Assembly (NCBI GenBank): GCA_002269645.1
Contig: NIVC01002322.1
Location: 120,137-184,136 of the forward strand
DNA from: Macrostomum lignano
Taxonomy: Eukaryota
Length of the DNA stretch: 64,000 bases
Reading direction: 5' to 3'
Positions 11,976 to 64,000 of this stretch are shown in pieces (positions within the stretch are counted from its first letter, which is position 1; every line of letters begins with the position of its first letter). The notes below the pieces were generated by a model. It did no database searches and was not told where the DNA came from. It worked only from the letters and a program-made list of their open reading frames with translations. Position numbers and translations under genes: made by a program.

Positions 11976-11987
11976 GCCAGTTTCAAG

Positions 11988-13807: not shown

Positions 13808-13963
13808 TCTCGATGAGATTCGTCTCAATGAGGTTCGTCTCGATGAGATTCGTCTCGATGAGATTCGTCTCAATGAGATTCGTTTCAATTAGATTCGTCT
13901 CAATGAGATTCGTCTCAATGAGAGTCGTCTCACTGAGATTCGTCTCAATGAGATTCGTCTCAA
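13808..13963. repeat. 15-bp intronic repeat (atgagattcgtctca/g)n
   Basis: Direct reading, ~10 copies. Confidence 0.9.
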
Positions 13964-14019
13964 TTACGAAAGCATTACATTATAATTCAGAATGGACTAT
14001 TCTCTATCCCATCCCCCAG

Positions 14020-14385
14020 GTGAAGCTGTCAATCACGCTGGCCTCGCTGCTCGGGCTCACCTGGCTGCTGTGCATTCTATTCTTCTTTGCTCAGGGCCGG
14101 TTCCTGCTCGCGGCTCACTACCTGTTCGTGCTGCTCACCGGCCTGCAGGGCTGCTTCATCTTCGCCACCCAGATCGCCGCTCACGAGAGAATTCGCGAGG
14201 CCTGGGAGCGGCGCCTGCTGAGCAGCGGCGGCCGCTGCCTCCCCAGCAGCCTTCGCCGCTGTCTGGAGAGACGGCGCACGGACAGAATGAGCGGCGCCTG
14301 CGGCAAGCAGCAGCAGCTGCAGCAGCAGAAGTTGAACTCCAGAAGCAAAAGTGCGGCCGATTCCGCTGCGCAAGGGAATTCGAAG
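14020..14385 (+). CDS. Adhesion GPCR exon: TM6, TM7, start of C-tail
   Basis: ccccag|GTG acceptor; LLGLTW (TM6) and GLQGCFIF (TM7); AAG|gtttgt donor in phase 0. Confidence 0.9.
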
Positions 14386-14791
14386 GTTTGTAAGAATCTC
14401 AATCCTTGGCTTAGGGATTAAGGATCATTGGGGTATTTAGCTGATGGGTGAGTGAGCTAATTAATTGGTCATTGAGTTTTTTGGTCATTGAGCTTATTGG
14501 TCATTTAGTTTATTGGTCATTTAGTTTATTGGTCATTGAGTTTATTTTTCCTTTAGTTTATTGGTCATTGAGTTTATTGGTCATTGAGTTTATTGGTCAT
14601 TGAGTTTATTGGTCATTGAGTTTATTGGTCATTGAGTTTATTGGTCATTGAGTTTATTGGTCATTGAGTTGATTGGTCAATGAGTTTATTGGTCATTTAT
14701 TTGATAGGTCATAAAGTTAAGTTTTCACCGAGTTGTTTAAACAACCAAGCTATATCCCAGAATGTGTGCAACTACCTATATCCCTGTGCAG

Positions 14792-24100: not shown

Positions 24101-27100
24101 CAAACAACAGCTTGCCAAGCGCTTGTCTACTGCACTCGGTTTAGAGCAAGCTGACGAAGACTTCAACAACTCCGAGATGACTTCTGCTCCGGACGCCGAA
24201 GACGCCATCGGCAGCGCGGGCGAGGCGCCTCCGGGGGCGGGGAGCGACCGGCTGGCTGCGCTGCGGCAGGAGGTGGAGCTGCTCGAACTGCAAGTCCTGG
24301 AAGGCCGTCGTCGTGATCTTCAGCAACAGCTTCACACTCAGCAGTGCTTGACGGCTCAGCCTCAGCCAGCATCATCATCAGGTAAGCATAACGCACATTC
24401 CAGTCTGCAGCTGCCCGAGGTTTTTGAATCTGGGATGAGGGAGGCGGCTCAGCTTCAGGCCGCTAATTGCCAGGCTCCGACTCGCAGGTTGCATCTCGTC
24501 AGAGACCACATCAAGCTAGCCAGAGGACCCGGCTCAGCCAGTCAGGAGCAGTTGATCGCCACTATGGAGAATGGCTCGCTCACATTCAGAAAGCAGTAGC
24601 CGAAGCTGTCTAGTATCTCTGCTGGTCAGTGGATCGCGGCCAACTCGATCATCTTGCAAAAGCTGATCAAGGAAAAACTCCCGGCGGCTGCTGGAAGCAC
24701 TGATGGTCTCCTGACTGACGTCCTTGGCTACCTTGACTACAATCGCAAGATTGGAGAGCTGCTGGCTGCTGACTACCCGGAATCCGTGATCTGAGAGTTT
24801 GACGAGGACTACCGGAGGCTGGTGGCGGAGTCGGGCATGGCGTGGGGTGAGGAGCCCCCTCAGTTGTACCACAAGCACCTCAACGCCCCCAGAAACCTGC
24901 GGTTCACGTTCGCTAAGCAGCCCAGCCAGCAGCAAATCCCGGCAGCAGCCAGGCCGATCTGTCTGCGCTTCAACTCCGAGTCCGGATGCAACCGCCAGAA
25001 CTGCAAGTTCCGCCACGTCTGCAAAATCTAAGGCTGCCTGGCAGCGCACCCGGCTCACGCTCACACGCAGTCGCCGCAGTCATTACTCACCAGACAGCTG
25101 CCGGGTCATGTGACCGGTGCGAGTGCAAAAAACTGATGCAATTTTATCCAGCTGACTGCTCTGCTTTTAATTCCGATTTTTCTGCTTTTACTTCTTCGCT
25201 GCCCATCTCGTCTGACCTGCAGCCTGACGCCTGGAGTGCTCTGCTCAGCGACGACCCAGACCGCGACTTTCTGAGGCCAGCCACCTTTGACTTCGTCCAA
25301 GAACCACGCCTCCGCCCTGCTGCACCGCTCTGCTGTGGAAGCCCAGGTCGAGGAGGAGCTGCGCCTTGGGAGGTACATCCGGTGGAGCGGCCCGATCAAA
25401 ATCAACCCCATCGGCGCCCTTCCCAAGTCCAACGGGCGGGTCCGCCTGATCCATGACCTGTCCTATCCGACCGGCCAGTCTGTCAACGACTGCTACGACC
25501 AACAGAAGCACATCAAGTACTGCACTGTCCAGCAGCTGGTTCGTCATCTCCATCCGGGACACTACATGGCCAAAATTGATCTCAAAAGCGCCTACAGGTC
25601 CGTGCCAATCAGGCCTGCTGACTACCGGCTCGTCGGCCTCGCCTGGCGGTTTGACTCAGACAGCCAGGACAGTCTGCTCTGCGACACCAGGCTTCCCTTC
25701 GGCGCCAAAGCTGCTTGCGAAGTTTTTCACCGTCTTTCAGCCGCCGTTACCCGGCACATGCACCGGCTTGGCTTTTCTGCTACGGTGAACCACCTGGATG
25801 ACTGGGCAGTCGCTGGGAAATCCGAGTGCGAGGCTTTCGCTGCTTTCGATTGCCTGCTGGACATCTTGCAGCGCCTCGGCTTTGCCATCAACTGGGACAA
25901 GGTTGTCAGACCTACGCAATGCATCGACTTCCTTGGCGTGCGCATCAACACCGCTACCGGCACCAAGTCGCTGCCCGAGGAGAAAGCTCTCGAGACGACA
26001 AAGCTGCTGACTCAAACCTGCTCGGAGACTCGGGTGCACATGCGCTCTGCTCAGAAGCTGATTGGCAAGCTTGGCTGGTTCTGTCAGATTGTCCCTCCTG
26101 TCAGAGTTTTACTGCGTCCGCTCTTCGACTGGCTGACAACTGCTGTTGACTGCAAGCTTTGGGTGACCGATGAGACCCGCGCCAACCTGTCCTGGTGGCT
26201 CAGAGCCCTGGCTTGGCTCCCCCCGGTGGCTTTGTGGCCGCGCTTTGATGAGGAGTTTGCCATGGAGACTGACAGCAGCCGGTCGGGCGCAGCCGCAGTC
26301 ATCTGGGGTGCCGAGAGTTTCTGGAGTGTCATCGACTGGGAGCTGGACTGCGGTGGTGTGTTCAAGGATGTCAACTTCAAGGAGGCTCTGGCACCTTTGC
26401 TGATCATCCTGCACCGTCGCTCTCAGCTAAAGAACTGCAAGATTGTCATCTACACTGACAGCACCGCTGTGGCTGGCATGATCAATCGCTGAGCTGTCGT
26501 GACCCGCGGTTCCTGCAGGTGTACCAGACTGTGGCTCTGCTGTGCATCAGGAACAGCATCAGTTTGGAGGCTTTTCACCTTCCTGGTCGCATGCAGATTT
26601 TTGCTGATGCCGCCTCCCGCATGTTTGCCTCGCAGTCTGAGCTCATTAACTTTTGCTGCCGCTACTAACGTACGCTCGTGATCTGCCTGCTTGAGTTCGC
26701 GTCGCACGCGCTCTCTGCCACTTCTCAATCTCGCCTCCTTTTGCAGGTCGCCCTCGCCCTCCAGAGACGCCGCCCGCCCCCCGCGCTGTGTCCGCCGGAC
26801 ACCTGTGCCGCCTCGGCCTGGCGGACAACTCCTGGCGATGCTACCTCAGCCAGCTGCGCTCCTGGGAAGCCTTCTGTGTTAGCGCAGGCCGCCCTTCATC
26901 TCCAGCTGACGGTGACCTGCTCTGCCGCTACATCGCGCACCTGGTGAGCACCCGGCTCCGGTCCTTCTCTAGCCTCCGATCCTACATCCATGCCGTCTCT
27001 TTTCTGCACCAAGCCACCGGCGCCCCCGACCCAGCGAAAAACTTCACCGTGCAGCTGGCCCTCCGCGGCGCCAAACGTCATCTGGGCCTGCGATGCAAAC

Positions 27101-29656
27101 AGGCGAAGCCGCTGACCATCGAGCACCTCAAGAGCATCCATCAGCAGCTCCCGCGCTCCATCTCAAGCGCAGATCTCAGGGCCGCCTTCTGGGCGGCTCT
27201 TCTGGTGGGCTGGTGGGGCATGTTGCGCCTTGGCGACTTCCTATCGACCCGCGGCAGCCGCTCTGTCTCGCGGGCCTGCCTGTCGGCTTCATCTGGCTGC
27301 TGGAAGTTGGCCCTCCCTAAGTCCAAGACCAACCAGTTCGGGTCGACGCCGCATGTCGTTCTTCTGCCACCTGTTCAAGAGTCACCGCTCTGCCCTGTGC
27401 GCGCCCTGCGGTCTCACCTGCACCTGTCACCAACCAGCGACCCAAAGGCGCCACTCTTTGGCTACGGCCTCAGAGGCGAGCTCTCAGCCAGCCAGTTCAT
27501 CAGCTGTCTTCGTGCGTGTCTGGCTGCGTGCGGCCTTCCAGCTGCCGGTTTCTCCGGCCACAGCATCCGACGTGGGGGTGCCAGTTTCTGCCATCAAATC
27601 GGCTTGTCAGAATCGGACGTTCGGGCTCTTGGGGTCTGGAGATCGGACGCTGTTCTCCGCTACTTTTCTGCCAGCTCTGCCCTGTCGCGCCGCCAGCGCT
27701 CTGCTTCTTTCATGGCTTCGCAGCTGCAGGCTGCGTCCACCTGACTGCCTTCCCGCTTTTACTCCTTCCCTTCCCCATCATTGGGGTTGGGATCCGCTTT
27801 CTCGGCCGCTGCCTGCTTTTCGCAACTGACTTTGTCTCGTTTGGCTCCTTCCGGCGTGTTTAATGCAATCGTTACTCTCTGAGTAAGGGGTGTTAGACGC
27901 GCCGGAGGGTGCCGCTGTACATGTCGCTGTACTTTGGCGGGGGGTTGAGGTGTGGGGGTGTTGGCCGCGCCGGCCAGCTTAAAGCCTCTGCACCCGGCCC
28001 GGCTTGGCTCCGCCGCCATTTCTCAATTTTTTTATCTCCTTTTTACGAACCAATAAATATTAACTCGTTTAAACTAATAAATAAACGCTTCGCTTGATCC
28101 GCTGGGATCCGCTTTCTCGGCCGCTGCCTGCTTTTCGCAACTGACTTTGTCTCGTTTGGCTCCTTCCGGCGTGTTTAAATGAAATTTAATCGTTAGAACA
28201 GAGAGGTTGGCTTCCGTTAGTTCATTGAGGCTGGCTTTCCGTCATTGAGGTTGGTTTCCGTTTGGTCATAGAGGTTGGTTTCTGTTTGGTCATTGAGGTT
28301 GGTTTCCGTTTGATCATAGAGGTTAGTTTCTGTTTGGTCATAGAGGTTGGTTTCCGTTTGGTCATAGAGGTTGGTTTCTGTTTGGTCATTGAGGTTGGTT
28401 TCCGTTTGGTCATAGAGGTTGGTTTCTGTTTGGTCATTGAGGTTGGTTTCCGTTTGATCATAGAGGTTGGTTTCTGTTTGGTCATTGAGGTTGGTTTCCG
28501 TTTGATCATAGAGGTTGGTTTCTGTTTGGTCATTGGGATTGGTTTCCATCGGTTTTATCGAAGTTGGGTTCCATGAAGGTCATTGGCGTTGATTACCATT
28601 GAGGTTAGATTCCACAGGGTCATTCCAACGTTTTCATACGAGCTAGATGTCATTGAGATTGGTTTCTGTTGGTCATTGATTTGGGCTACCATCGGTACAT
28701 TGGAATCATATTCTCAAGGGTCATTAGAGCTGCCTACCAAGCTCCCACTCCCCACCAAACTTACATCCTGTTGTACTCGCAGAACATCAGGAATTTGTTA
28801 GTGGCGCACTCCGCAATGGCGCAGCCAACCTCGGACACCGCGGCGCCCACCAGCTGAATGTAGTGCCCGCACTGCTTCAAGTTCAGCGAGTTGCTCAGGT
28901 CGCAAGCTTTTCTCGGGTAGTCGTAGGCCAATTTCTCCATGAAGAAGAAGGTCAGGATGTCGGTCAGGTTGGTCCGAAAGCCTTGGTAGATGTTCTCGCC
29001 CAAGTTCTGATATGGTCCGTTGTAGTTGTGCTCGAATACACAGCGATTGGCCGCCTGCTGAGCCAGCTCTTCCAGGTAGGGGTTCCACGTCTGGGGTGTT
29101 GAAGGAGAGAGGCCATGTACATTGGGGAAAGGTGTTGGAGAAGAGAGGCCATGTACATTGGGGGTAAGGGTTTTGGAGAAGAGAGAACTGTACATTGGGA
29201 GTAAGGGTGTTGGGAAAGAGAGGCCATGTACATTGAGGTAAGGGTGTTGGAGGAGAGAGGCCATGTACATTGGGGAAAGGGTGTTGGAGGAGAGAGGCCA
29301 TTAACATTTGGGTAAGGGTGTTAGACGAGAGAGGCAATGTACATTGGGGTAAGGGTGTTAGACGAGAGAGGCAATGTACATTGGGGTAAGGGTGCTGGAG
29401 AAGAGAGGCCATGCATTGTTGTACGCTCGAACGCACACCTGGGGTAGGGAAGCAAAGATAATCGAAAAAGATCAGAAAAAGCCAACTTTACCAGAAAGTT
29501 CATGTCAGCAGCGGAGGGTGAGACGGAGCGCCTAAGGCGGTTGTGCGTGTCGAGAGCTTCGGTTTTCTGGGCTGGCGTCAGCACGAGGCCACTGGCGCCC
29601 ACAGTGAGCGGCAGGCATAGCAGGAATAAAAGCGCGTGACAGCGCTCCAGCTGCAT
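18146..29656 (-). CDS. 7-exon gene: signal peptide-CAP(SCP)-hinge-EGF-EGF-unassigned (SEA-like?) domain-RKKR-GPI-type tail, 505 aa. Exons 29656-29492, 29090-28765, 22839-22703, 22571-22458, 21730-21477, 19424-19142, 18384-18146
   Basis: All introns are GT-AG and the phases are consistent (0,2,1,1,0,1; total 1518 nt). CAP motifs [31 protein letters not shown]; hinge [11 protein letters not shown]...CLNGLC; EGF motifs [15 protein letters not shown] and CLNGG...[13 protein letters not shown]; hydrophobic C-terminus [16 protein letters not shown]. Confidence 0.85.
18440..19095. repeat. 17-bp C-rich intronic minisatellite (ctgcacccacc[t/c]cactc)n
   Basis: Reverse complement of the 12970-13378 unit, more degenerate. 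Confidence 0.9.
19490..21382. repeat. ~34-bp intronic minisatellite (catttccggtccc[aacctaaag/atcctgcag]catccgctccct)n
   Basis: Roughly 55 tandem units with two or three interchanging variants. Confidence 0.95.
21810..22425. repeat. 18-bp polypyrimidine/polypurine satellite (ccccatctccctctcctt)n
   Basis: Direct reading. Confidence 0.95.
22870..23765. repeat. 37-38-bp minisatellite (ccccgatgtacatggcctctcttctccaacacccttac)n
   Basis: Direct reading; an inverted relative lies at 29091-29415. Confidence 0.95.
24021..25136 (+). pseudogene. gag-like ORF1 (N-terminal SAP domain, C-terminal CCCH/CCHC Zn fingers) with 3 in-frame stops
   Basis: ccgccATG start; SAP pattern [28 protein letters not shown]; [29 protein letters not shown]; stops at 24597 (TAG), 24792 (TGA) and 25029 (TAA); terminal TGA 25134-25136. 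Confidence 0.85.
25136..26668 (+). pseudogene. Reverse transcriptase-RNase H (DIRS/Ngaro type), frameshifted
   Basis: [27 protein letters not shown] (YLDD position), DFLG; RNase H ETDSS, NFKEAL, YTDS, then HLPG...ADAASR in another frame after ~26490. A further frame change lies near 25270-25290. Confidence 0.9.
26788..27744 (+). CDS. Tyrosine recombinase (phage-integrase family) of the Ngaro element
   Basis: Catalytic set present: MLR (R), SKT (K), GHSIRRGG (HxxR), GVWRS (W), LRY (Y); also LCPVRAL. No ATG start; the 5' end is uncertain. Confidence 0.92.
   Translation: MSAGHLCRLGLADNSWRCYLSQLRSWEAFCVSAGRPSSPADGDLLCRYIAHLVSTRLRSFSSLRSYIHAVSFLHQATGAPDPAKNFTVQLALRGAKRHLGLRCKQAKPLTIEHLKSIHQQLPRSISSADLRAAFWAALLVGWWGMLRLGDFLSTRGSRSVSRACLSASSGCWKLALPKSKTNQFGSTPHVVLLPPVQESPLCPVRALRSHLHLSPTSDPKAPLFGYGLRGELSASQFISCLRACLAACGLPAAGFSGHSIRRGGASFCHQIGLSESDVRALGVWRSDAVLRYFSASSALSRRQRSASFMASQLQAAST
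28205..28545. repeat. 24-bp minisatellite (gaggttggtttc[c/t]gtttggtcat[a/t])n
   Basis: Direct reading; lies just beyond the Ngaro right end. Confidence 0.9.
29091..29415. repeat. 37-38-bp minisatellite, inverted relative of 22870-23765
   Basis: Plus strand ggagaagagaggccatgtacattgggg..taagggtgtt is the reverse complement of the unit at 22870. Confidence 0.9.
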
Positions 29657-50945: not shown

Positions 50946-52400
50946 GACGGACTGAAAGCGCCGATAATCAAACCAATTGAAATTTGTCACCCGCCTCCTC
51001 CATTACTGAAATTCCTCAAATGATAGCTGGCTTGAATTTGTGTACGCAACCTCCCCCCAACTACAATCTTGGCAGAAAGTTTAAAAGTATGGAAATCGTT
51101 TTTTTCAATGCTGTGCTTTTTGTTTTCATATTTAAAGCAAATAACTTATATCCCCGAATTTAGCGTTGCAAGATCGAGCAAAGCTTCAAAGCATTAAGTA
51201 TCGAGTGTACATTCACCTGCCTGCTGTTTATTCATTGAATTTCACTGCCCAGCTAATATACAGCCAGGGCTGCCTTTCGAAAGGCGCCGATAATAAAACC
51301 AATTGAATCTCGACACAGTCCTATCTATCTGTTTACAATGTACATTGCTATGTACACTCAGCCCAAACCAACCCTCCGTTCTGGGGGGAATCATTAAGTT
51401 TAACTGAACCCCCCAACACGCGGGGGGTTTTATTAGCATTGAACCCAGAACACGCATCACCCACCCCTCCAATACACAGCGACCTGCGGGGGGGGGGGGT
51501 TGGGGTGGTTGTTTTTACAACTAATGCCACTGGAGAGGCAAAGTGGCCAAAGAAGGTTAAGAAAACAGTTTTCTGCTTTTTTAGCAGACTTAATTTTGAA
51601 AATTTCAACATTAAAATAGCCTATTTGTTGCGTAGGAAAATTCTGCATTGATATATATAAGTCGCGCATTTGAGTTGCCAGCCGTTTAGGAGGAGATACG
51701 CGTTAAACCCGGCCGGTCGATCGATCCACTCAGCTTTAGATATAAGATATAATAAGATTCCAAGATTGAAATCGAATATCTCAGAGGTGCCCAGAGAAAG
51801 TCTGTTATGCAGAATAGCTGAGTATCTCACACACCAATTTCAATTTTGACTGACTGAAATTGATGATGAAGAACCCGAAGCAATTGAAGTGGGGGTCACT
51901 GATGCCGCTTAAAAATCGCTCGAGAAGCTGGACTGCAGGACTCCGATAGCTGAGGATGGACAGGTTTGAGGAAACCTGATAACGTCTCATGCGCCCTTCT
52001 ACTCAAGATTTTCAAGAGAATGGATGGGCGATGAAAAATATGGCTGGACTGGGGGCAGGTCATTAGGTTAATAGATTGAAAGCCCCCCCCTGAGCCCAGA
52101 CTCAGGCGCGTGCCCCCCTGACCACTTGTCAAACACAGCGGGGGCCCCGCGTGCGCTCAAACAAAAATGGGCGGTTGAGCAAAAAACTGAAATTCCTCAA
52201 GTTGCAGGCCTCGAGCCGTTCTGTAATCAAACAGAGGCGCTTATTAATGGCTGGGTTTGGGACCCGATGCCTCAGCTCCATCATCTAACACTGCCATCTT
52301 CCCATTGTTCTATTGAATTTGGGAGATATATGGTCAGACATTTGAGTTAGCTCAGACTGGACAATGGGAATCGTTCCCCACTCATTGAGCCTTTGACCAC

Positions 52401-52668
52401 AGTAGTATAGAAAAAGACGCTTCTAGACCCAGAGCACTTTTTTAATGACCGTTTTAAGGGTCTAGAGGGGGGACACGGGGGGTAAATAAAAAAACACATC
52501 TAAACACCCTTAACACATCTAATCACCCATAATCACCCCTAACAATAAAAATCACTTCCCAACACTTCCAAACACTCCCCAACACCCCCCTCGCGTCCCC
52601 CCTCTTAAGACCATAAAAACGGCCATTAAAATAAGGTCTGATCTAGAAGCGTCTTTTTCTATACTACT
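52401..52668. repeat. Inverted repeat: perfect 27-bp arms 52401-52427 / 52642-52668, extended imperfectly to ~85 bp, around a G-free loop
   Basis: agtagtatagaaaaagacgcttctaga is the exact reverse complement of tctagaagcgtctttttctatactact. Confidence 0.95.
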
Positions 52669-52753
52669 ACTCTATAACCCCTTGCCCGCGCCGCAGGCGC
52701 TAAGGGTCGGAAAGAATAGAAGCTATTTATAGTCAGTTCACCTACCCACCCAA

Positions 52754-52851
52754 CATTCCATTTAGACCAGATTTTAGACCAAACAAAACTAGACTATCGT
52801 TTTGGTTTTCGTTTTCAAAAATTTGGTCTAAAATCTGGTCTAAATGGAATG
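52754..52851. repeat. Perfect 30-bp inverted repeat (52754-52783 / 52822-52851), 38-nt loop
   Basis: cattccatttagaccagattttagaccaaa versus tttggtctaaaatctggtctaaatggaatg. Confidence 0.95.
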
Positions 52852-52889
52852 CAGACAATCTTTTTCTGTTACTAAAAATAGAACAAAAA

Positions 52890-53299
52890 ATGACACACGT
52901 TACACATATGCAAAATCTGAATGAATTGCAGGTAGGAGACCCAGTTGAATACCGAGGTGAGGGGCTTTTTGATGTGGTTGGAACAGCAGCAAATTTTGTT
53001 AAAGACAATATGGGGCTTATAGGGCAAGCTGGCTCCGCAGCAGGTTCTATAACAAATGCTGTAAAAGGAGGAATTGAAGCAGCTAGAGCGGCAGAAGAAC
53101 TAAAGAAATTGAGAGAATTTAACGATACCCTCTCACAGATAAAAGCAATAAAAGATTTGAAATTAGCACAGGAAGCAACCCAAGCCGCACAACCAACAGA
53201 AACCCCACGAAAAGCGCACCAATAAGTAATAAAGATATTCAGGATTTTAATAAAATGTTAAATACTATTAAAGGTGGAAAAGGATTAAAGAAATTTTAA
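52890..53299 (+). CDS. pVI-like virion precursor protein (amphipathic helix after GEG|; probable -1 frameshift near 53205 giving C-terminus ...IKGGKGLKKF)
   Basis: aaaaaATG start; YRGEG|LFDVVGTAANFVKDNM; VKGG; the -1 frame 53204-53299 reads PTKSAPISNKDIQDFNKMLNTIKGGKGLKKF*. Function is inferred. Confidence 0.6.
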
Positions 53300-53309
53300 C
53301 AATATAAAA

Positions 53310-54303
53310 ATGGGCTCAGTTAATGATGATGAAAACCGGTTATATTTTATAGGAGAAATTGTAGATACTTTAGATCTTGATGATAATAAGCAAACCCACA
53401 CAATGTTAAAAAGATTGGATCGATTAGGTAAAAAGTTTGACTACGACATCGATACATTTAAACTCGCAGCAAAATATGCACAAGAAGGAAGGCCAATATC
53501 CTTTAAGAATCGCGGCAGAAATTATAGGTTGACAGACTCTGATGTGAAATTTTTAATGGAGACTCACACTAAAAAGGACGGTGGATTACTACCCATTCTA
53601 CCGCTTCTTTTAGGGCTTGGCGCAGCTGGAGCAGTCGGTTTAGCCGGAAAAAGAATTCATGATAATGTAAAACAGCTAGGAGAGTTAAGAGCGAAACAGG
53701 GGGGAATCTTACCCCTTGCAGCTTTGCTCCCAATAATTTTTGCAGGAATTGGAGCAGCTGGAGGAGTTGCTGGCGGAGCAGCTGGAATTGCAAAAGCAGT
53801 AAATGACAAAAAAGCTGCGGACGAAAAAGCCAAACGAGATGCAGAATTTCAAAGACAGCAAATAACGCAGGACGCACAATTTAAACAAAAACTTATCGAT
53901 ACAATTAATAGTAGTTCAGCAACAGCTGAGCAAAAAAGAAATGCAGAAGCTAGGTTATCAGCTGGAAAAGGGTTAATACTAAAAGGATCAAATCATGGCA
54001 ATGGTTTACTTTTACAAGGAACAACCCAAGGAAGTGGAGTTGTCGCAGATAAACTACACGAATTTGGCCAAACTTTAGAAAAAACGGGTGAGAAAGCTAA
54101 AGGATTTTTTGACAATATTGGATCCAATTTTAGACCAGCAGTTCAGAAGATTTTACTAAATTAGGAAAAGATTTTAACATCATTGAAAAACATGATGGAA
54201 GCGGATTATATCTCGAAATGAGACCAAAAGCAGGTTCAGGAATTTTCTTAAATTCAAACGTTATGGCAATGGATTGCTATTACCAAAAGCAGATCTCGAA
54301 TAG
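53310..54303 (+). CDS. pX/mu-like polyprotein precursor with repeated GG|/GxG| motifs (intact to 54164, continued by -1 shifts)
   Basis: KDGG|LLPILPLLLGLGAAG and KQGG|ILPLAALLPIIFAGIGAAGG resemble the adenovirus pX tail MRGG|ILPLLIPLIAAAIGA; GKG|LIL, GNG|LLL, GSG|VV; downstream frames give GSG|LYL, GSG|IFL and GNG|LLL. Confidence 0.7.
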
Positions 54304-54387
54304 GCTCCTGGGGGTAGGGTCTGGACACCAAAAACGCAAAATTAAAAAATCAATAATTCAAACATTATATAAATTATATTCTATAAA

Positions 54388-57300
54388 ATGGAACAAAGAT
54401 TGACCCCAGATCAGATTCGACAACTTCTTGCAAATGAGCGCCAACAGTTCAATCGATTACAAAGACAGATTGAACAAATTGAACAGCGCCAAAGACAACA
54501 ACGCCGCCAAAGAGCAAGAGAAAGACAGAGAGAAAGGCAGAGAGAAAGAGAAATACAAGACCAACAAATAAATGCATTAGCAAATAATATAAGGGCAGAA
54601 TATGAAATGAAGCGATTAATAGAAAAGGCTGAATATGAAAAAAGAATAGCAGAATTAGAAAAAAACCAAAAGAAACCCACACGTCGGAAACCTCGGAATA
54701 AATCGGATGAAAAACCATTAGATGAGTTTATTAGGGTTTATCGATTTGAACCAATGCAGAATGTCTTAGATTTTATTGAAACCCAGCTATCAAACGGATA
54801 TGCTGTTGAAATTACTAATGCGAGGGTACAATATTTTTATAATAAAACCGGAGATGATCGTGAAGAGATTAATCAATACTTAGCAACATTTTATAATATA
54901 AGTCAATTTCAAGCTTGGTTTAAGCATTTGGTAGAAAATTACGACATGAATTTAAGTGTGTTTTCTGGAAGACTTAAAATGACACCAAACGAAATTACAC
55001 TTAAACACGAAAGGTCAAAGCAGGGTATGGGAACAAATGTCATGTGTGAAATTGCAGAGTATAAAGATGAGTACTGTTACATACCTAGTGATGGAAATTG
55101 TTTCTATAAGTGTGTTCAGTTTATTTATGGTGATAAAGCCCCACGCAAAGACGAATATGGTGCTTGGTTGTACGACTCAAGAACTCAAAGAGGTTTAATG
55201 ACAAATTCAAGAATTGGAAGATTCAACGAACATTTTAATCTTAGTATAGGGCTGTACAACACCAAAAATCGTGGCATTGAACCAAAGTCTCAAAGAGGGA
55301 TTCACCACGATTGGTTATTAATAAATTACTTTCACACACCCGATTATCACATTGGTCATTATTGTCTTATATCAAATAAACAACGAGGAATCGCCCTCGA
55401 ACGGATAAAAGACAATTATAAAGTTGTATATAAAAACCCAACGCTCGAAAATGTTAAGGAGCTAAAAATGTTCAACACACCCACAAATCCCAATAAATCA
55501 AACGTATATATATTTGATTTTGAAACATATTTAAATTATAATCAACAAGCATGTCCGTATGCGGTTGGTCTTTTAAACTATAACGCCTTTTCTAATAAGT
55601 GTAATGAAACCCCAGAGCAAATAAAGAAACTAACTAAGATCTTGATATCAGATCGCGGTTGTGATTTTCAAACAGATGGAGATAAGGTTGACCGTGCCGA
55701 AGGTTCGCAACCAAAGGTTGATTGTGTTAGAAAAATGTTTAAATACCTTGGTACAGTTAGGTCAAAAAAGATTGTTTTGATCGCGCATAACTCATCCCGC
55801 TTCGATTCATACATACCACTATTTTGTAATATAAAACCAATTAAAATTCTCAAAACCCCAAGAGGAATATTATCAATAACTTTTGTAAACGATTACGCGT
55901 CAAAAGAGGTTAGCGCATTTATAAACAAAGATAAGAAGAAGAATCATAAGGATTCGAAACAAACCATTACGATGCTTTGTTCATATCAACATGCATCAAT
56001 GAGTTTAAAAAAGTTTTGCTCATCAATGACAATTAGAGAGGATTTGCGAAAGACCTCAATGGTTCACGACATTACCGAACACGACTATTTAGAGCGCATG
56101 GACGAATGGTATGAATATTTACAATTTGATCTTATTTCTTTATGCGCCTGTATTCATAAGTATAATGAAATAGCATATGAAATTGGAGGAATGACAATGT
56201 TCGATACTCTTACCTGTTCAAGTTTAACATTAAAATGTTGGTTTAAAGATTTTGTTAGAGTTGAAGACAAAATGAAACAATATCTAAAGACAGAAGAAAA
56301 AACTAATTACATTAAAAAAGTTGAAGAAATAATATCTCCGTTGAAAATAGAGGATTATTTTGACTTAAGCAAACTTGAAAAAGCAAAATACCAAACACTA
56401 TTAAGAAAAGAATTTTCAGTTCACTCTCATACCAATCCTTATATACGAAGGTTTATGCGGGACGCAGTCAAAGGAGGCAGGGTATTTGCACTAATAAATA
56501 AATATGAAAGCGACTGTTTTCAAACAATTGTAGACGTTGTAAAAGCCCATTTAAAAACACCAACAAGCGACCCATGCGAGGTTATATCATCTTATCTCAA
56601 AAGCGATATGGAAGAAAAAAAGAAAATCGCAATTAAACTAAAAAAGCAATTGGGTACCGTATCAGATTGTTTAATGAATTTTGATGGAGTTTCGTTGTAC
56701 CCATCTGCCATGTCTGATAAGGATAGTGAATATCCAAGAGCAGAAACAGCAAGAGTTTTTGATATAAGCGAGGAAAAAGATTTCTTGGCACAATTTAATT
56801 CACAAACCTTTCGACCAAAAACAGCGGTTTTAAAGATTATGTATGAGAATCCTAACACCGTTTTTCTTCAACATCTCCCATCGAAAGATAAAGAGAAATT
56901 TTATAATCCGGAAACAAAAGCAAACGAAACAAAAACATTAAATAGGTTTAGAAACGGAAAAGTAATTGACACCTTATGTTCCGTAGATATACAAGAAATT
57001 GTAAGAATGGGTGGAAAAATATTAAAGATATATAGTGGAATTGTATATGAAAAAAATTACGATTTCTCTCCGTTTCAGAATTATATTACAAATCTTTTTG
57101 AAATGAGAAAAGTATTTAAAAAAGAAAATAACGAGGCAGGTTCTGAATTGGTAAAAACACTATTAAATTCATTATATGGCAAAACAGTTCAAAGAGACAT
57201 TACTTTCACAACACATCTCTGGAATTTGCAAACATTAAAAACCGAATACGATGACACAATCAAATCATATGAGAAAATATGTGACGATTTATATTATGTT

Positions 57301-58008
57301 GAAAAAAATAAAGACACGCAAGAATATGTAGATGAGGAAGAGGAAAGCCCTATAACAAGCCTTTGTCCAGCACAATTAGGAATATTTATCTTAGCTCATT
57401 CAAGAAGGATCATGAATAATTTTATTACCTCTATAGAGGGCTCAAAGACTCCAGAAATTTATTACGGCGATACAGATTCGTTATATATACATAAAAAACA
57501 TTGGGACACATTAAATAAAAACGGGCACGTTGGAAATAACTTAAGTCAAGGAAAAAATGATTATGGAGAGGGTGGAATTATATTCGGTTATTTTATCGCT
57601 CCTAAAATTAAATATTGTCTTTTATTGAAAGACGATTTTATTATGGAAGAGAAAAAAACATTTAAAGGATGTGCAAACGATAAGATTAATTTTGCATCGT
57701 TTAAAACTTTATATGATGGACAGTCAATAAAAGTAAATAATAATGCTCCGTGGAAACGATCATTTGAAGGTGGTATAACAATTCCTCAAAGCGGATCAAC
57801 AATATCAAAAACATATAGCTCTACGATAAACACATTTAAAAGAGAAAAACCGGATAAAAACGGAGTTATGAAACCATTCTTTAAAAACTATTTTGATGAC
57901 AAACCACAGCATGAACAATCAATTGAATATTATAACAGTTTACTATTTGACGTTGACTATAATTGTTTTGAGTTCGATATTGATGAATTAGCACTTGAAA
58001 AAAACTAA
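54388..58008 (+). CDS. polB: Protein-primed family B DNA polymerase with N-terminal TP-like region and vOTU-like protease domain, 1206 aa, intact
   Basis: ExoI FDFET, ExoII HNSSRFD, ExoIII YLQFD; PolA DGVSLYPSAM, PolB KTLLNSLYGK, PolC YGDTDS, KxY in APKIKY; OTU-like IPSDGNCF...GHY. Confidence 0.96.
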   Translation: MEQRLTPDQIRQLLANERQQFNRLQRQIEQIEQRQRQQRRQRARERQRERQREREIQDQQINALANNIRAEYEMKRLIEKAEYEKRIAELEKNQKKPTRRKPRNKSDEKPLDEFIRVYRFEPMQNVLDFIETQLSNGYAVEITNARVQYFYNKTGDDREEINQYLATFYNISQFQAWFKHLVENYDMNLSVFSGRLKMTPNEITLKHERSKQGMGTNVMCEIAEYKDEYCYIPSDGNCFYKCVQFIYGDKAPRKDEYGAWLYDSRTQRGLMTNSRIGRFNEHFNLSIGLYNTKNRGIEPKSQRGIHHDWLLINYFHTPDYHIGHYCLISNKQRGIALERIKDNYKVVYKNPTLENVKELKMFNTPTNPNKSNVYIFDFETYLNYNQQACPYAVGLLNYNAFSNKCNETPEQIKKLTKILISDRGCDFQTDGDKVDRAEGSQPKVDCVRKMFKYLGTVRSKKIVLIAHNSSRFDSYIPLFCNIKPIKILKTPRGILSITFVNDYASKEVSAFINKDKKKNHKDSKQTITMLCSYQHASMSLKKFCSSMTIREDLRKTSMVHDITEHDYLERMDEWYEYLQFDLISLCACIHKYNEIAYEIGGMTMFDTLTCSSLTLKCWFKDFVRVEDKMKQYLKTEEKTNYIKKVEEIISPLKIEDYFDLSKLEKAKYQTLLRKEFSVHSHTNPYIRRFMRDAVKGGRVFALINKYESDCFQTIVDVVKAHLKTPTSDPCEVISSYLKSDMEEKKKIAIKLKKQLGTVSDCLMNFDGVSLYPSAMSDKDSEYPRAETARVFDISEEKDFLAQFNSQTFRPKTAVLKIMYENPNTVFLQHLPSKDKEKFYNPETKANETKTLNRFRNGKVIDTLCSVDIQEIVRMGGKILKIYSGIVYEKNYDFSPFQNYITNLFEMRKVFKKENNEAGSELVKTLLNSLYGKTVQRDITFTTHLWNLQTLKTEYDDTIKSYEKICDDLYYVEKNKDTQEYVDEEEESPITSLCPAQLGIFILAHSRRIMNNFITSIEGSKTPEIYYGDTDSLYIHKKHWDTLNKNGHVGNNLSQGKNDYGEGGIIFGYFIAPKIKYCLLLKDDFIMEEKKTFKGCANDKINFASFKTLYDGQSIKVNNNAPWKRSFEGGITIPQSGSTISKTYSSTINTFKREKPDKNGVMKPFFKNYFDDKPQHEQSIEYYNSLLFDVDYNCFEFDIDELALEKN

Positions 58009-58052
58009 AGCATGTAATTGTTTGAGCAAATCATTAACTTCAATTTCATATA

Positions 58053-58340
58053 TTATTGAGCACCAATTATCCTCACAGTCGCAGGGTAACTTAAACAATC
58101 CTTTATTTTTTTCCTAAGTTTTTTTATTTTTCTAACCAATCTATCTATTTCAATTTCAATTACTATTTCAGCATAAACAATATCTTGTCTTAAAAAACGT
58201 TTTCTTTTATCTATCTCATATCGGATGGGAAACATATCGTCCCCATACTCATGATATTTCTGAGATATAATTATATTTATTTTTTTATTAATATCATTAA
58301 GTTCACGCTCTTTAGTGATAAGGATTTTTATCGTATCCAT
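58053..58340 (-). CDS. Viral hypothetical protein, 95 aa, basic/coiled
   Basis: ATG in tataagaaaATG context; packed between PolB and the next ORF. Confidence 0.6.
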   Translation of the reverse strand: MDTIKILITKERELNDINKKINIIISQKYHEYGDDMFPIRYEIDKRKRFLRQDIVYAEIVIEIEIDRLVRKIKKLRKKIKDCLSYPATVRIIGAQ

Positions 58341-58361
58341 TTTCTTATAAAAAATTTAAAC

Positions 58362-58691
58362 TTATTCGGGGTCATCCTCCCAAACAGCCGCCAATTTTAC
58401 AGTCCTATCACTCTTTTTATTATTTGTTTGTTTTAGTTTAAATTGCAATCCACCCTCGATGCAGTATTTCATAACAAACGCTTTAGGTTTATTAATAACT
58501 AAAACTGGAAAATTTTTAACATCATCTCCGCTTAGACATAAAATTTTTTGCCCATCTAATTGTAAAAATATTGATTGAAGTCCAATAAATTTAACCTGTC
58601 TCAAACATATAATATTATATTCTTTATTCTCCAACATATTGGGTGTGAGATAATTAATCACATTAGAATCGGTTTTGAACCAGCTCTCCAT
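58362..58691 (-). CDS. Viral hypothetical protein, 109 aa, beta-rich with acidic C-terminal tip
   Basis: taaaaATG start; compact gene spacing; ends WEDDPE. Confidence 0.65.
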   Translation of the reverse strand: MESWFKTDSNVINYLTPNMLENKEYNIICLRQVKFIGLQSIFLQLDGQKILCLSGDDVKNFPVLVINKPKAFVMKYCIEGGLQFKLKQTNNKKSDRTVKLAAVWEDDPE

Positions 58692-58717
58692 TTTTAATCT
58701 AAAAAAATAACAAAAAA

Positions 58718-58906
58718 ATGAAAGACATTTATGTTTGTAATAAATGTAATGTGACTATGCACAGAGGGCAAACAGCAAACGGAGATATATATCATATGTG
58801 TTATTCATGTTCTAAAATATATCAATTTGAAAAAACAAAAAGATTGAAAACTCATATTACTATTTTAAAAACAAATTTTAAGAAATCTTACAAGAGACAT
58901 TTCTGA
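58718..58906 (+). CDS. Small Zn-ribbon protein (CNKC...CYSC), 62 aa
   Basis: Two CxxC pairs; aaaaaaATG start; divergent from 58691 with a 26-bp gap. Confidence 0.6.
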   Translation: MKDIYVCNKCNVTMHRGQTANGDIYHMCYSCSKIYQFEKTKRLKTHITILKTNFKKSYKRHF

Positions 58907-59020
58907 TCCAATTTTAATTCCCGGAAATAATGTTTATTTATATAATAACTTTTTCCATTTAAATAAAGGAAAGGGATTAAGTTCGAAAGACTCCGAAAGG
59001 ATTTTAATTTTAGTTGGATA

Positions 59021-59206
59021 TTATTTCAATTTTCTTATTCGAGAGAATACAAAGTTTATAAGGATAGGTAACATACCTAACGAAATGTTATTGAAAAAGT
59101 CATTGGAATTTTTATGTATTGATAAAAAATTTAAACCTAGGATCAGAAGAGAGTTACCACTTTGGGAAGAATATATAACATATGCATTAAATAAATTAAA
59201 CAACAT
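59021..59206 (-). CDS. Possible small hydrophobic viral protein, 61 aa
   Basis: Its ATG overlaps the end of the upstream gene; two hydrophobic stretches. Confidence 0.35.
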   Translation of the reverse strand: MLFNLFNAYVIYSSQSGNSLLILGLNFLSIHKNSNDFFNNISLGMLPILINFVFSRIRKLK

Positions 59207-59851
59207 TAAGTTCTACAGCACTTCCTGACCGTGGGCTTTGTGCCCCAGTAGCAATAGTTTCGGGTTCGTAAATGCCTAATGTTTCTATCGGTGGAGCTTT
59301 GGGTTTATCGAGTCTCAACTCTTTTAATTCCATATCGGTAAAAGTTTCAACATCTAAAATTCTATTTCTATCTTTTAAATATTTTTCATATAACTCAACC
59401 GCGGTTGATAACTCGTGAATCGTTATCTCTCCGTCATCCAATATTTTTTGCACATATAAATATAATGATTTTTATATTGTTTTGCAACATCTCTTAATGA
59501 TTTATATTTTTCCTTTCTTTTTTTAAGATATAATTTAATTGCTAAAAGTATTGATAAGTTCCTGATCAATTCAAAACCTGATATTGAGCCAATTGAAATA
59601 CCTAAAAATAATTGAGATAAATTAAGAGTTGGAATAGATTGTAAAATACCTAAAACGATTACACATAACATTGATAAGCTTCCAAATCCAATATTGAAAA
59701 AGTCCATATTTCTTATATGGTTTGAAACTCTTCTTACTTTTTTAGCATATAAATCATAATCATAATTTATTCGATCAACATTACTCAACATCTGACCTTT
59801 ACGTTGGTTGAACCGGTCGCGTTCCCATTTATCTGCTTCAGATACCGACAT
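59196..59851 (-). pseudogene. Two-TM viral membrane protein with DGEIT motif, split by a 1-nt deletion in an A-run (~59445)
   Basis: ORF 59423-59851 (coiled coil + 2 TM) joins ORF 59196-59453 (ILDDGEITIHEL) if A6 is read as A7. Confidence 0.7.
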
Positions 59852-59913
59852 TCTCGTCTATTTTTAATAGCACCAAAATGAATTCCCCGCGCTCTTTGGG
59901 GATTTGCCCGAGC

Positions 59914-60162
59914 TCAATAGGTATTGTATTGGAGTGATTCTTTCTTTTTTCTCCCATTTAAATCCATTTTCCAAAACTCTTGAAGTATAATATGATTTTT
60001 TAATAACTTAATTAATTCTTGAAGCTTCTTATTATCCTGAACATTTACAGTACTAAATAAAAATTTGGTATGAGATTTGAATGTTTTTATATTTGATTCT
60101 TGTTTAGGAATAGGAATATAGACATTATTTTGCCGCATCGATGGAGTTCTACTAAAAGCCAT
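59914..60162 (-). CDS. Viral hypothetical protein (MAFSRTPSMRQ...)
   Basis: ctatataaaATG start at 60162; the 3' end may be frameshifted. Confidence 0.45.
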   Translation of the reverse strand: MAFSRTPSMRQNNVYIPIPKQESNIKTFKSHTKFLFSTVNVQDNKKLQELIKLLKNHIILQEFWKMDLNGRKKKESLQYNTY

Positions 60163-60193
60163 TTTATATAGAATTATTTTATATATAAATATT

Positions 60194-62210
60194 TTATATT
60201 TGAGTAGGAGGTTTTTCCAAATAAGCAGTAGAGGGAAAAACATAACCAAACGACGTACTACCACATACAACTGCACCACGAATAAAATGTGCAGCATCCG
60301 ATCCTCCAGTTCGAGCACCAAAACCCATAAGGGTTCCAGATTTATCTAAAGTTCCCCAAGTTCCACTATCATATGTGAAAACGTTCTGCCCAATGAGGGT
60401 ATAAGAATCACCAGCAACATTGTATGTATGAATTATACCAAACCCTTTGATTTAAAATATTAATTCAAATAAATGCCAATCCGTTATCAATATTTGCATA
60501 GGCTAGTTTGATCCGCGTCAGTATTAACATCGCGCGGCTTGATCCGTCTGATTTTTTTACTCCAATACCAAATATCATGCCACTCACTTGCAAAAACTAT
60601 CAATCCGCGTCGGTTGATAATCCAGATCCAAATTCCGATGTTGGACGTTGGTGACAGTATGCATAAAACCAAACCGCATCTGCACCATCTCCTGTAGCAT
60701 TAGCAACTCGGAAAAAGAAAGACGCAGATATATTTTGAAAATGTGTGAAATTGAATTGTAAAGCACCACTTACTCCAGAAGTTTCACGAGTAATTCTAGC
60801 GCCGTTTTGATAATCGATATAAGAAGCGTCACCAATTAAAGAACCGACTGGATATATATCTCCGGCGGTTGTTGGATTTTGATATCCAGACCAATTACAA
60901 ATTACTGGTTCGAACAAGGCCGCATCAATAGCAGGTATTCCATCCAATTTATTTTTATCGCTTCCAGACATTCTACCATTTGATGTTGGAGTAGCTAGCT
61001 GATCTACGTACGCTCGCGAACTGCAGAAAGTATTTGAGTTGGCCAATTAAGATCTTGAATTTCAACACGGTGTTCAAATAATTGTATTTGACGAACCTCG
61101 ATAGGTTGTGTACCGGTACCACCAGTTGGGAAGAATACGCTATAATATTTCCAAAAATTAGTCGTTAAATTAGATAGAGCAAATGATGTTGCTTGAACTG
61201 GTGATCCGACGTAGTTAATGTCGTCCATGAATCGGTAGCAACATTTTTGCGCGAACCGACCACCCCGAGGGTATCTCAATTGTTTCACTGCCTGTAATTC
61301 TTAATTCAAATATTCTTCTATTATAACCTAAAAATTCAAATTGAATTTCCATATTGGTTGTGGTTCCGGTATTTGGTGACCATTGTGTCGCAAGGCTTCC
61401 ATCTCCAACTCGAAAAGCTGTGTTGCCATTTTCAGATGCTGTAAGAACAACATCAGGATTTGAAGTATTTGATGTAAGCGGCGTGGTAAAAATATCGGCG
61501 TCGGTTGCATTAGCTCGCTCGTTTACTTGGCCTAGAGTTATCGAGTCTGCGTTCTCTGTTCCAAATAATAAATTTGTTAATTTAAAATTATTCATATTAA
61601 TATTTCCACTACGAGTGGCAACTTGATTATCGACATAGTTCTTATCAACACTGAATCACTAGTTGTAATTGAAACATTTATAATTCGGTTGTTGCTCATA
61701 TCTAGGTTTCCGGTTGCGGTGGTTTGAACATAACGTGAATCAGAATCAGTTCGAGAATAAGAATCAGTTACATCTCTTTTTAAATTTAATCCATTATCAA
61801 CTTCGGTTTTGGTATAAGAATCGGCTACGTTCCGTTTCAAATTTAATGAATTATCAACTTCGGTTTTGGTATAAGAATCGGCTGTATTGCGTTTTAAATT
61901 TAATGAATTATCAACTTCGGTTTTGTATAAGAATCGGTATTGCGTTTTAAATTTAATGAATTATCAACTTCGGTTTTGGTATAGGAATCGGCTACGTTCC
62001 GTTTCAGATTTAGTGAATCATCTATTTGAGTTTTGGTATAGGAATCTGCAACATTTCTTTTTAAATTTATTTTTAGTATCAACTTCACTTTTTTTATAAC
62101 CTTCATCTTCATTAATATATCGATTATCTCCAAATGTAACACTTATTCCACCAGATGTACCACCACCACTACTTGTGTTCCGTTCCATGAGGGTGTTCAG
62201 AAAATAACAT
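60194..62210 (-). pseudogene. Fibre-like protein: 19-aa shaft repeats, NxxI-NL..D...YVD stalk motifs, F5/8C-like domain, phage-tail-fibre motif, L-type lectin head; multiple frameshifts
   Basis: About 6 copies of KRNVADSYTKTEVDNSLNL (57-nt DNA repeat); GNLDMSNNRIINV..KNYVD..GNINMNNFKLTNL; AFRVGDGSLATQWS..YYSV..VRQIQLF; ATPTSNGRMSGSDKNKLDGI; SFFFRV..GDGADAVWF...WH..ELIF...GFGARTGG..H.I; stop at 60194-60196. Confidence 0.75.
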
Positions 62211-62221
62211 TTTTTACTGTC

Positions 62222-62714
62222 TATTTTATAGAGTCTAAAATCGTGGCCATCGGCAATGCTTTGCATGATATTCTTAAATACTTCGGGGTTTTTCGAGTTA
62301 TTAATTTTATATAAAAAATACAACGCCGCTTGCCCGCAATAACTTTTATCAAATGTTTGAAACTGTTCGTGATGATCTCCACATAAACGATTTTAGTATG
62401 ATTAAATTTGTCTTTTATTTCCTGTAACGGAGAAGCGCGTATGAATCAAAAAAATAAACAAGTTTTGGTTTTGAATAAACTGCTGACAATGAACACCGTT
62501 TTCTTTTGTTGTTTCAATATTAACAATGAAAGATCCATATTGTGGTAAGTCTTTGATCTCATCTCGCATAACACATCTGAATGGTTTTATTTTAACTGCC
62601 TCGCCAATTTGTTAATTCGATATTGCTTGTTGTGTCGCTTCCATATCTTTGTTTAAAATCATCCACGTCATGTCATTTTTGTTTCCTGAAAAACTCATCC
62701 CACGTCATGGTCAT
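62222..62714 (-). pseudogene. Adenain/Ulp1-like maturation cysteine protease (PRO), frameshifted
   Basis: Reading across 1-nt shifts gives TSNIEL..IKPF.CVMRDE..LP, FIVNIETTKENGVH[W] (His 62489-62491), YFFDSY (Asp 62445-62447) and QFQTFDKSYCG (Cys 62336-62338). Both ends are approximate. Confidence 0.8.
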
Positions 62715-62715
62715 T

Positions 62716-62898
62716 TTATGTTGCTGAAAAACTCTTGGTTTTAGTTAGTTTCGTAGGTGTGGGTTTTAACAATTCCTTTCTTATTTTATCAGCTTGTAAC
62801 TGCTTTAATTTTGCTAGTTCTAGTTCGTAATTATCTTCAGCTTTTTTAACTTTTTCTGATTGTTTTTTTATTAAATTATTATTATTATTATTACCCAT
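62716..62898 (-). CDS. Small basic coiled-coil viral protein, 60 aa (MGNNN...)
   Basis: ctatagtaaaaATG start; fills the gap between penton and protease. Confidence 0.5.
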   Translation of the reverse strand: MGNNNNNNLIKKQSEKVKKAEDNYELELAKLKQLQADKIRKELLKPTPTKLTKTKSFSAT

Positions 62899-62911
62899 TT
62901 TTACTATAGGA

Positions 62912-63688
62912 TTAAACCTGTTTTATACGTAAAATTATTGTTATTGACTGCCCACCAAAACTTATTAATCTATCGCTTTCATCTACAATCCTAATATAAA
63001 TTGATTGAACGCTATATTGATTTAAAGGATAATATATTGGGGTTTGGGGTGCAACAATCATTTTCTCTCCAATTGGAACAGCAAGAAATGGGATTGAATA
63101 AATAATTCCACGTTGAACCAAAACTCCGTTATCGTCTGTTATATAACCACCGTTTGAAATGTCGGTTGTTATATTAATTGTATTTACTCCACCCTCTATA
63201 TTTCCAACTGTATCACCGGTGCTTGATGTGGTAACTATTCGGGAATTAAATCCAAGTATGGTTCTGAGTGAATTTGCAATTGTGAAATCAACCTGATATC
63301 CGGATCCTAGTGATAGTGTGAATCTGCCAGACGGTAAATCAACACTATAACAATTGCTCCTGCTACCACCATTAGTTGTTAATTCTCCTTCTATATAAGC
63401 ATTCAAATCAGTATAGCTATACGCTCCTGGGTTAACGCTAAATGTTGTCCAATTGGCTCCGGAATCTTTAGAATATCTAAATTGATTATTTGTTGCATTA
63501 ATTAATTGAGGCATGTTGAAAACCGAAAATAGTAAACCTATTTGATAACTTAGGCTTTGATCAAGTTGTAATGGATCGCGCAATTGAATCCGTTGCTCGC
63601 TGGTTGTCATTATAAACTGTAATGTTGTACTAAATTTTGAATTAGTTCGATCTACCAATTGTTTTATAGTATTTAAATTTGTAGTCAT
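62912..63688 (-). CDS. Minor capsid protein (penton, single jelly-roll), 258 aa
   Basis: Polinton mCP pattern: NNQFRY..PGAY...LN..I, SLRTILGF, P.GEKMIVAPQTPIYYPL..SIYIRIVDESDRLISFGGQSITIILRIK. Confidence 0.88.
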   Translation of the reverse strand: MTTNLNTIKQLVDRTNSKFSTTLQFIMTTSEQRIQLRDPLQLDQSLSYQIGLLFSVFNMPQLINATNNQFRYSKDSGANWTTFSVNPGAYSYTDLNAYIEGELTTNGGSRSNCYSVDLPSGRFTLSLGSGYQVDFTIANSLRTILGFNSRIVTTSSTGDTVGNIEGGVNTINITTDISNGGYITDDNGVLVQRGIIYSIPFLAVPIGEKMIVAPQTPIYYPLNQYSVQSIYIRIVDESDRLISFGGQSITIILRIKQV

Positions 63689-63757
63689 TTTTTATAGTGG
63701 GAATTAATCGTACCGAAGTCGCGTGCTATGTCTCTTCTTCCTCATTATCTTCTTTTA

Positions 63758-64000
63758 TCAATTTGTTAAAATTCTATGTTTCCTTTCTAACCTCGGATTG
63801 ATATAAATATGTTTGTATTGGCTATCAATCCCAAATTTTTTACACATACTTTTAAATGGTTTTGCATCCAATCCGGGATTAAATCTAGCGTGAATATTTT
63901 GTAGATCATAGTTATCTAAATCAAACATTACACAACAGCTAGCATTCTTTTTTAATCGATTCTAATTCTCTAAAGGATTGAGTAAGATAAAAAGCTCCAT
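63758..64000 (-). pseudogene. C-terminal part of A32-like (FtsK-HerA) packaging ATPase, cut by the window edge, one frameshift
   Basis: YLTQSF..L..I|KNASCCVMF...DLQNI...FKSMC...IYIN matches the Q...IR.N sensor/arginine-finger region; stop at 63758-63760. Confidence 0.7.

Follow-up and report, generated by a model that had tools for sequence, protein, structure and literature searches.

Why should one copy of a virus-like element carry a terminal hairpin whose type differs from that of its own polymerase? The question is posed by an endogenous Polinton in Macrostomum lignano, which occupies the right part of a 64,000-nucleotide stretch of contig NIVC01002322.1 (here C2322; assembly GCA_002269645.1, positions 120,137 to 184,136; henceforth the window). 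The element starts with AGTAGT at window position 52401, from which the GC content is 33%, as against 49% upstream, and it is cut at base 64000, where the contig stops; the major capsid protein (MCP) and integrase are missing from the window because of this. An earlier note, made from the letters alone, had described this AT-rich block, its protein-primed DNA polymerase (pPolB) and the absence of MCP and integrase from the window, and in these respects it was right. The polymerase, designated type W, is an open reading frame (ORF) of 1206 aa (54388..58008, + strand) that matches PF03175 (E=2e-18), and its predicted model matches the phi29 polymerase (E=2e-19). Here, we find that the family to which this copy belongs has two polymerases and two types of terminal hairpin, that the end type tracks the polymerase among the copies compared, and that the window copy joins an end of one type to a body of the other.

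Copies were collected with a search probing the element's ends, which returned 212 candidates; among the best 40 of these 212, which were scored, full-length matches are 98-100% identical. Full-length copies (~17.6 kb) encode an ATPase, a 493-aa MCP and an integrase, and they have terminal inverted repeats (TIRs) and 6-bp target duplications. The TIRs (~308/321 bp) and duplications lie within the ranges that define Polintons (100-1500 bp and 5-8 bp, respectively). The integrase of copy C2768 is of the retroviral type (rve, E=2e-7, with 31.8 bits just under the cutoff of 32.6), and the A32-like ATPase of an intact relative matches Pox_A32 (E=9e-7). In the Atlas, MCP and penton score 0.97-0.98 to viral clusters, some of them with double-jelly-roll (DJR) or capsid families; the recognition score of the MCP is low. 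The MCP is very divergent, with two homologs at 48-50% among 8000 candidates scored. No relative of it was present in 387 stretches from JGI metagenomes, a C-terminal query of IMG/VR gave 0 of 3, and a profile search of IMG/VR found nine distant PolB loci (24-31%). The MCP is under purifying selection, with a ratio of nonsynonymous to synonymous polymorphism (pN/pS) of 0.20 in 20 copies compared with one natural ORF, 8 of which have neither indel nor stop; this pattern fits a capsid gene that is being used. Both polymerases are also under purifying selection (pN/pS 0.16 and 0.13; 20 and 10 copies, one natural ORF each). Frameshifts are many in the compared copies and nonsense changes nearly absent, an excess that suggests indel errors of the assembly. 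Further, several contigs fuse halves of different insertions.

The earlier note's attribution to the Polinton toolkit is borne out at the level of the family: across copies there is a full virion gene set, and the MCP, integrase, terminal repeats and 6-bp target duplication that it had asked for all occur in copies other than that in the window. Its suggestion of a poorly sampled host did not survive: the host is M. lignano, and all or part of the stretch is found in 20 runs from 7 studies (among the runs so listed, none is on record as RNA). The gene set itself is ordinary for a Polinton. What is new here is that polymerases and ends are dimorphic and that the window copy is a hybrid, neither of which could be seen by the earlier note.

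The dimorphism of the polymerase is abrupt. The window polymerase has no DNA-level match in the first 10 copies fetched, where an unrelated gene of ~3.95 kb, type M, replaces it. The two genes are swapped exactly at the ORF borders, shared sequence being confined to an initial ATGGAA and a terminal AAAAAACTAA. Their proteins are 22% identical over 171 aa, and the N-terminal parts do not align. Type M is the commoner among copies (89 exact start matches, as against 27 for type W, for which there are 48 DNA candidates). A search with PolB-M gave 5486 matches, including Nematostella, Stylophora and Araneus, with invertebrate relatives in the thousands; PolB-M is a candidate for the pPolB1 class and PolB-W for pPolB2, a class with nematode, oomycete and mollusc members. 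The relatives of PolB-W form a rare clade of 39, the named members of which are from the limpet Lottia (42-47%). In a tree of 33 rows, picked from each search and including no reference pPolB1 sequence, W and M sit on opposite sides of one long branch. PolB-M carries an Endonuclease_7 (endonuclease VII) domain; PolB-W has no such match. PolB-W also lacks a sequence match in the PDB, but its predicted model places it in the protein-primed family B, with matches to bidnavirus, adenovirus and adintovirus polymerases in addition to that of phi29. The model has an N-terminal beta-alpha-beta-beta-alpha-beta domain followed by an OTU-like motif, and the predicted domains are terminal protein (TP), vOTU, exonuclease and polymerase. 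TP and vOTU are described as N-terminal domains of Polinton pPolB (PMC11161782). Because the model has this TP-vOTU order, a swap of the ORF would swap the primer protein as well. We found no HNH or VSR match to PolB-W in Pfam and no such title among the whole-chain fold matches listed, which is a weak test.

The ends are equally distinct. In copies with the W polymerase, alignment to an M element is confined to bases ~271 to ~17374; their outer ~285 bp form a fold-back that differs from the ~270 bp of the M type. The fold-backs have z=-13.1 for M and z=-9.9 for W, and the M hairpin is paired to the very tip, whereas the W hairpin leaves 10 nt unpaired. Both types start with AGTAGTA, within a common tip of 8 bp, and finish in a common GC mini-hairpin; there are 126 exact matches to the M end and 70 to the W end. 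In the window, an M-type terminal module, differing in type from the element's own polymerase, spans 52401..52686 (+). It consists of the AGTAGTAT start and a 268-bp fold-back with perfect arms of 27 bp (52401-52427 and 52642-52668). Next to it lies the inner terminal repeat common to both end types (52687..52708, +), which contains the mini-hairpin GCGCC-GCA-GGCGC. The arms co-vary: M variants that are 5-8 bases off the commonest arm have 0-3 mismatches with their own partner arm. We considered whether the hairpin at 52401-52668 is a separate miniature inverted-repeat transposable element and rejected this notion, because M copies have it at both ends as their outer TIR. A third end type was likewise rejected, since in the 12 untyped copies additional DNA precedes the end or a contig boundary truncates the copy. 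Near-perfect palindromic arms were seen at L030 (the right end in C1680), L024 (C925), L115/L138 (C1307), L116 (C3750) and L059 (C2834); such an appearance would fit the copying of one arm from its partner.

The two dimorphisms are linked. In 98 copies examined for polymerase and left end, 61 are M/M and 24 W/W, one has a W polymerase with an M end, none has an M polymerase with a W end, and 12 are untyped. The set unites 78 copies (41 M/M, 24 W/W, 1 W/M, 0 M/W, 12 untyped) with 20 loci, all 20 of which are M/M. About one-third of the M-polymerase starts were not fetched and are covered by a comparison of lists: upstream of the 89 exact M-polymerase starts there is not one of the 70 exact W-end matches, which are the complete W list. 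The linkage also extends to the opposite ends. When 153 ends (102 M, 51 W) were paired by target duplication, irrespective of left or right side, there were 33 M-M pairs (some redundant), 17 W-W and 2 M-W; 58 ends stayed unpaired, ~1.3 cross matches are expected by chance, and shifted controls gave 1-3. The second of the M-W pairings was rejected, for it joins two right ends, one already paired within its own contig. C2834 was rejected as a real element with M polymerase and W end, its left duplication pairing with an M right end in C4508. In six independent pairs, the end type tracks the polymerase with a median p=0.03. The parts so matched, namely the polymerase and both ends, are separated by 1.7 kb and ~11.4 kb of exchangeable DNA.

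We think it probable that these patterns, which come from comparing copies, reflect polymerase-specific replication origins that are kept matched by end-copying. The hairpins could instead be linked to the polymerase by some other role, such as fold-back self-priming, processing by the endonuclease VII of PolB-M, or type-specific signals for packaging or transcription. The difference in pairing at the tips and the Endonuclease_7 match in PolB-M alone would suit such a role, as would a report that terminal palindromes track the replication gene type across Halocafeteria subtypes (10.64898/2026.07.28.741278). Those palindromes, however, accompany non-pPolB elements, and the TP fold and OTU motif predicted for PolB-W point to protein priming. 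We thus hold these other roles to be improbable.

The DNA that lies between the matched parts behaves differently. On the tree of the 1.5-kb segment from the left end to the polymerase there are seven type changes, six of which are forced by starred branches; the segment after the polymerase has four (two forced), and that inside the right end has six (four forced). Between the polymerase and the right end, moreover, the fibre gene contains a dimorphic block of ~780 bp, whose forms A and B are non-homologous and assort freely (M 7A/3B, W 8A/9B, p=0.42). Taken at face value, these trees and counts show that the body between the polymerase and the ends, together with the fibre block, moves freely between W and M types. 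As a separate observation, fibre type B (L005:91-1689) has an F5/8 domain and a match to a phage tail fibre.

Linkage could also be historical and carry no specificity, if two Polinton lineages had merged their bodies once and gene conversion had since homogenised the shared DNA, the non-homologous blocks keeping their original pairing. Conversion would give intermingled backbone trees too, just six independent contrasts are available, and a polymerase swap in nematodes kept its TIRs. On the other hand, the fibre block is itself non-homologous and has crossed between types, and therefore long exchanges do occur; such exchanges should yield mixed-end products, of which a single validated case is at hand. 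A merger further leaves unexplained why only three separate blocks, the polymerase and both ends, are type-specific. For these reasons we regard it as a rather unlikely explanation.

The single validated case is the window copy, the only mixed-end insertion so established among the ends paired. The left copy of its target duplication, GACCAC, lies at 52395..52400 (+). The left flank is found at three loci, the window site and two empty alleles (C150 and C2833), and the right flank occurs in the same two empty alleles and in C2834, preceded there by a W-type end and GACCAC. The two empty alleles mark the insertion as polymorphic and, with the matching target duplication, bear out the earlier note's reading of an element joined to host DNA, as opposed to a chimeric join or a free virus. 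The window is M-type to 52686, and from 52701 it differs from the W copy C4108 by three substitutions in 5 kb; the switch therefore lies in the 14-bp common motif at 52687-52700 and is not placed at random within the 1.7 kb. Apart from the tip and the inner repeat, the two ends of this insertion have nothing in common. At 52701, the window copy has a rare T that recurs at the insertion's own right end and is found in 1 of 98 matches in the commonest M context. Judged by the assembled contigs, the window copy is a confirmed, recent insertion in which an M left end sits on a W body.

Might the hybrid be an artefact of assembly, or a conflation of two alleles, each holding a different element at the same site, in a family whose dimorphism is real? 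Chimeric contigs are frequent here (C2834, for one, includes an M left half that belongs to another site), and it is assembled contigs that provide the evidence. But the junction of host with M end and that of W end with host both abut the GACCAC that the two empty alleles define, each flank occurs at three loci only, and the T at 52701 ties both ends together. We give such an artefact little credence.

Returning to polymerase-specific origins, we propose the following mechanism. Each polymerase, with its fused TP, would start only at its own end type. W and M genomes would coexist within cells as free linear DNA, replicating and recombining there, and the common AGTAGTAT tip would let the shared integrase insert either end. 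At the common inner repeat, a displaced single strand could fold into a panhandle, a proposed and unproven route for restoring homology (PMC11886824). Through it, the firing end would be copied to the opposite one and hybrids brought back to the end type of the polymerase that copies them. The window copy would then be a W genome that switched template at the inner repeat, so acquiring an M left end, and was integrated before correction. A broader view, which we put forward tentatively, is that of one recombining virus population with two mutually exclusive replicons, each a polymerase-TP with its own hairpin origins, that draw on a shared pool of capsid and integrase genes. End-copying at the inner repeat would convert hybrids to the type of the replicating polymerase, and the window would hold a hybrid in transit. 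The arrangement would resemble plasmid incompatibility groups, but within one animal virus family.

Several points weigh against specific origins. The evidence consists of assembled genome copies only. The copies are related, so that the effective sample is ~6 independent contrasts, not 86, and the 61 M/M loci include 20 chosen from both M lists; with those set aside, the counts are 41/24/1/0. Contigs that join different insertions may inflate the intermingling of the trees through assembly mixing, although such mixing would be expected to erode the end linkage, not create it. Non-crossover conversion could hold the linkage in place with no specificity. In phi29, specificity rests largely on recognition between polymerase and parental TP, not on the end sequence (PMC2175359), and the nematode polymerase swap left TIRs "highly conserved" (Jeong et al., PMC10748475), meaning that new ends are not always needed.

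The remainder of the window element conforms in part to the virion gene set that the earlier note had listed. The penton, or minor capsid protein (62912..63688, -, 258 aa), stands: its family profile matches P1v1 of PDB entry 8h2i (E=7e-4) and Atlas matches are to viral clusters; a single-sequence model is of low quality (pLDDT 34). So does the packaging ATPase, as a C-terminal piece cut by the contig end (63758..64000, -). The fibre-like gene (60194..62266, -), which has 57-bp repeats and carries block A at 61011-61736, and an adenain-like cysteine protease (62270..62682, -, limits approximate) are present only as frameshifted pieces. The protease is a candidate named from its gene position and from motifs (His/Asp/Gln/Cys) recognized by eye; Pfam gave no match to it, and the PDB no meaningful one. 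The putative core precursor (pX/pVII-like, 53310..54164, +, 284 aa, longer in other copies) has a weak, below-cutoff match to Adeno_PX (E=0.008). A small Gly/Ala-rich core-like ORF call of 111 aa (52890..53225, +) gave no family match in a Pfam-type domain search. Five small ORFs, one Cys-rich and one with hydrophobic segments, lie at 58053..60345, several of them frameshifted in this copy. Near the left end, a perfect 30-bp inverted repeat (52754..52851) encloses a 38-nt loop that is found in both orientations among 40 copies (27 versus 13, i.e. 13/40 inverted); this flip-flop suggests single-stranded intermediates. Elsewhere in the window, ORFs resembling a reverse transcriptase and a tyrosine recombinase (25275-27744) have, by eye, the look of a DIRS/Ngaro retroelement, and exons like those of an adhesion GPCR (GPS plus 7TM), also recognized by eye, are interrupted by microsatellites (11969-14421).

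Other copies vary in further ways. The integrase ORF at L005:7340-8539 has a weak N-terminal phospholipase A2-like match (E=0.014), and beside it a Cys-rich ORF (L005:6355-6981), HNH-like by eye, varies among copies. In L016, L110, L111, L070 and L080, the DNA between the left end and the core gene holds optional inserts, which reach ~1.7 kb or more and contain ORFs. Short W-ended elements of 2-4 kb (L113 in C110, L114 in C691 and L112 in C393) have core genes, no whole polymerase and matching target duplications; that in C762 is similar, by coordinates only. Mobilisation in trans is likely for the first three. Five distinct ends (L007, L203, L209, L009, L164, L195) share the target 6-mer CATGCA, reflecting either a repeated target or duplicated loci. 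A mariner-like insertion lies inside copy L010 (C4661), and stacked W ends are found in C2506 and C506 (L021, L037).

To our knowledge, the start of Polinton replication and the role of the TIRs have been deduced only by analogy with adenovirus and phi29. In this family, one genome splits the TIR into an 8-bp tip (a candidate integrase site), a ~270-bp hairpin (a candidate origin) and an inner repeat, where ends may be exchanged. With two polymerases and two candidate origins named, a long-assumed specificity is open to a crossed initiation assay. The linkage also suggests why replacement of the polymerase, reported to be frequent in this virus group, can succeed. Finally, its very recent polymorphic insertions make M. 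lignano a practical place in which to seek free Polinton genomes or particles.

The family resembles Polintons, Mavericks and adintoviruses (Polintoviricetes) in its pPolB, RVE integrase, ATPase, candidate protease, MCP and penton, in TIRs that start from AGT, in its 6-bp duplication and in its length of ~17.6 kb. It departs from them generally in its very divergent MCP and in that a single recombining family contains two polymerases as well as two end types. We found no published account of Macrostomum Polintons or of polymerase-linked end types within one family, in a search that lacked subscription papers, Repbase, bioRxiv supplements and the original Polinton/adintovirus papers. Species-specific TIRs have been shown (10.1101/2024.01.15.575659). 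As in phi29/GA-1 and adenovirus, where polymerase, TP and origin are cognate (in phi29/GA-1 mostly via the parental TP; PMC2175359) and a panhandle is a proposed homology-restoring route (PMC11886824), the Macrostomum ends appear paired with their polymerase; those systems are non-integrating and were tested in vitro, whereas our case is drawn from genome copies only. Frequent replicase swaps are reported elsewhere, with the suggestion that the ends on which pPolB acts are also those used by the integrase (10.64898/2026.10.13.758929). Turnover of end modules has been proposed for Polinton-like viruses (PLVs) and virophages (PMC11296320), in which, as in our proposal, replication genes and termini would act and move as a module; terminal palindromes are associated with replicase type (10.64898/2026.07.28.741278). 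In those elements the replicase and integrase adjoin the end and are compared across lineages; in Macrostomum, the integrase is shared, and polymerase and both ends stay matched across the 1.7 and ~11.4 kb that separate them. The closest parallel is with nematode Polintons, in which pPolB1 and pPolB2 are swapped and TIRs are reported to be highly conserved across classes (Jeong et al. 2023, 10.1101/2023.08.22.554363); the table in that paper gives 748 pPolB1 and 0 pPolB2 for Platyhelminthes. Like the Macrostomum family, they have two polymerases (~16-22% identity) in near-identical elements of one genome, with the other genes interspersed in trees. Nematode pPolB2 subgroups have an HNH or VSR insertion, for which PolB-W gave no match. 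Unlike them, the Macrostomum elements have outer 270-285 bp that differ and track the polymerase, and they include a mixed-end copy in which the switch can be mapped.

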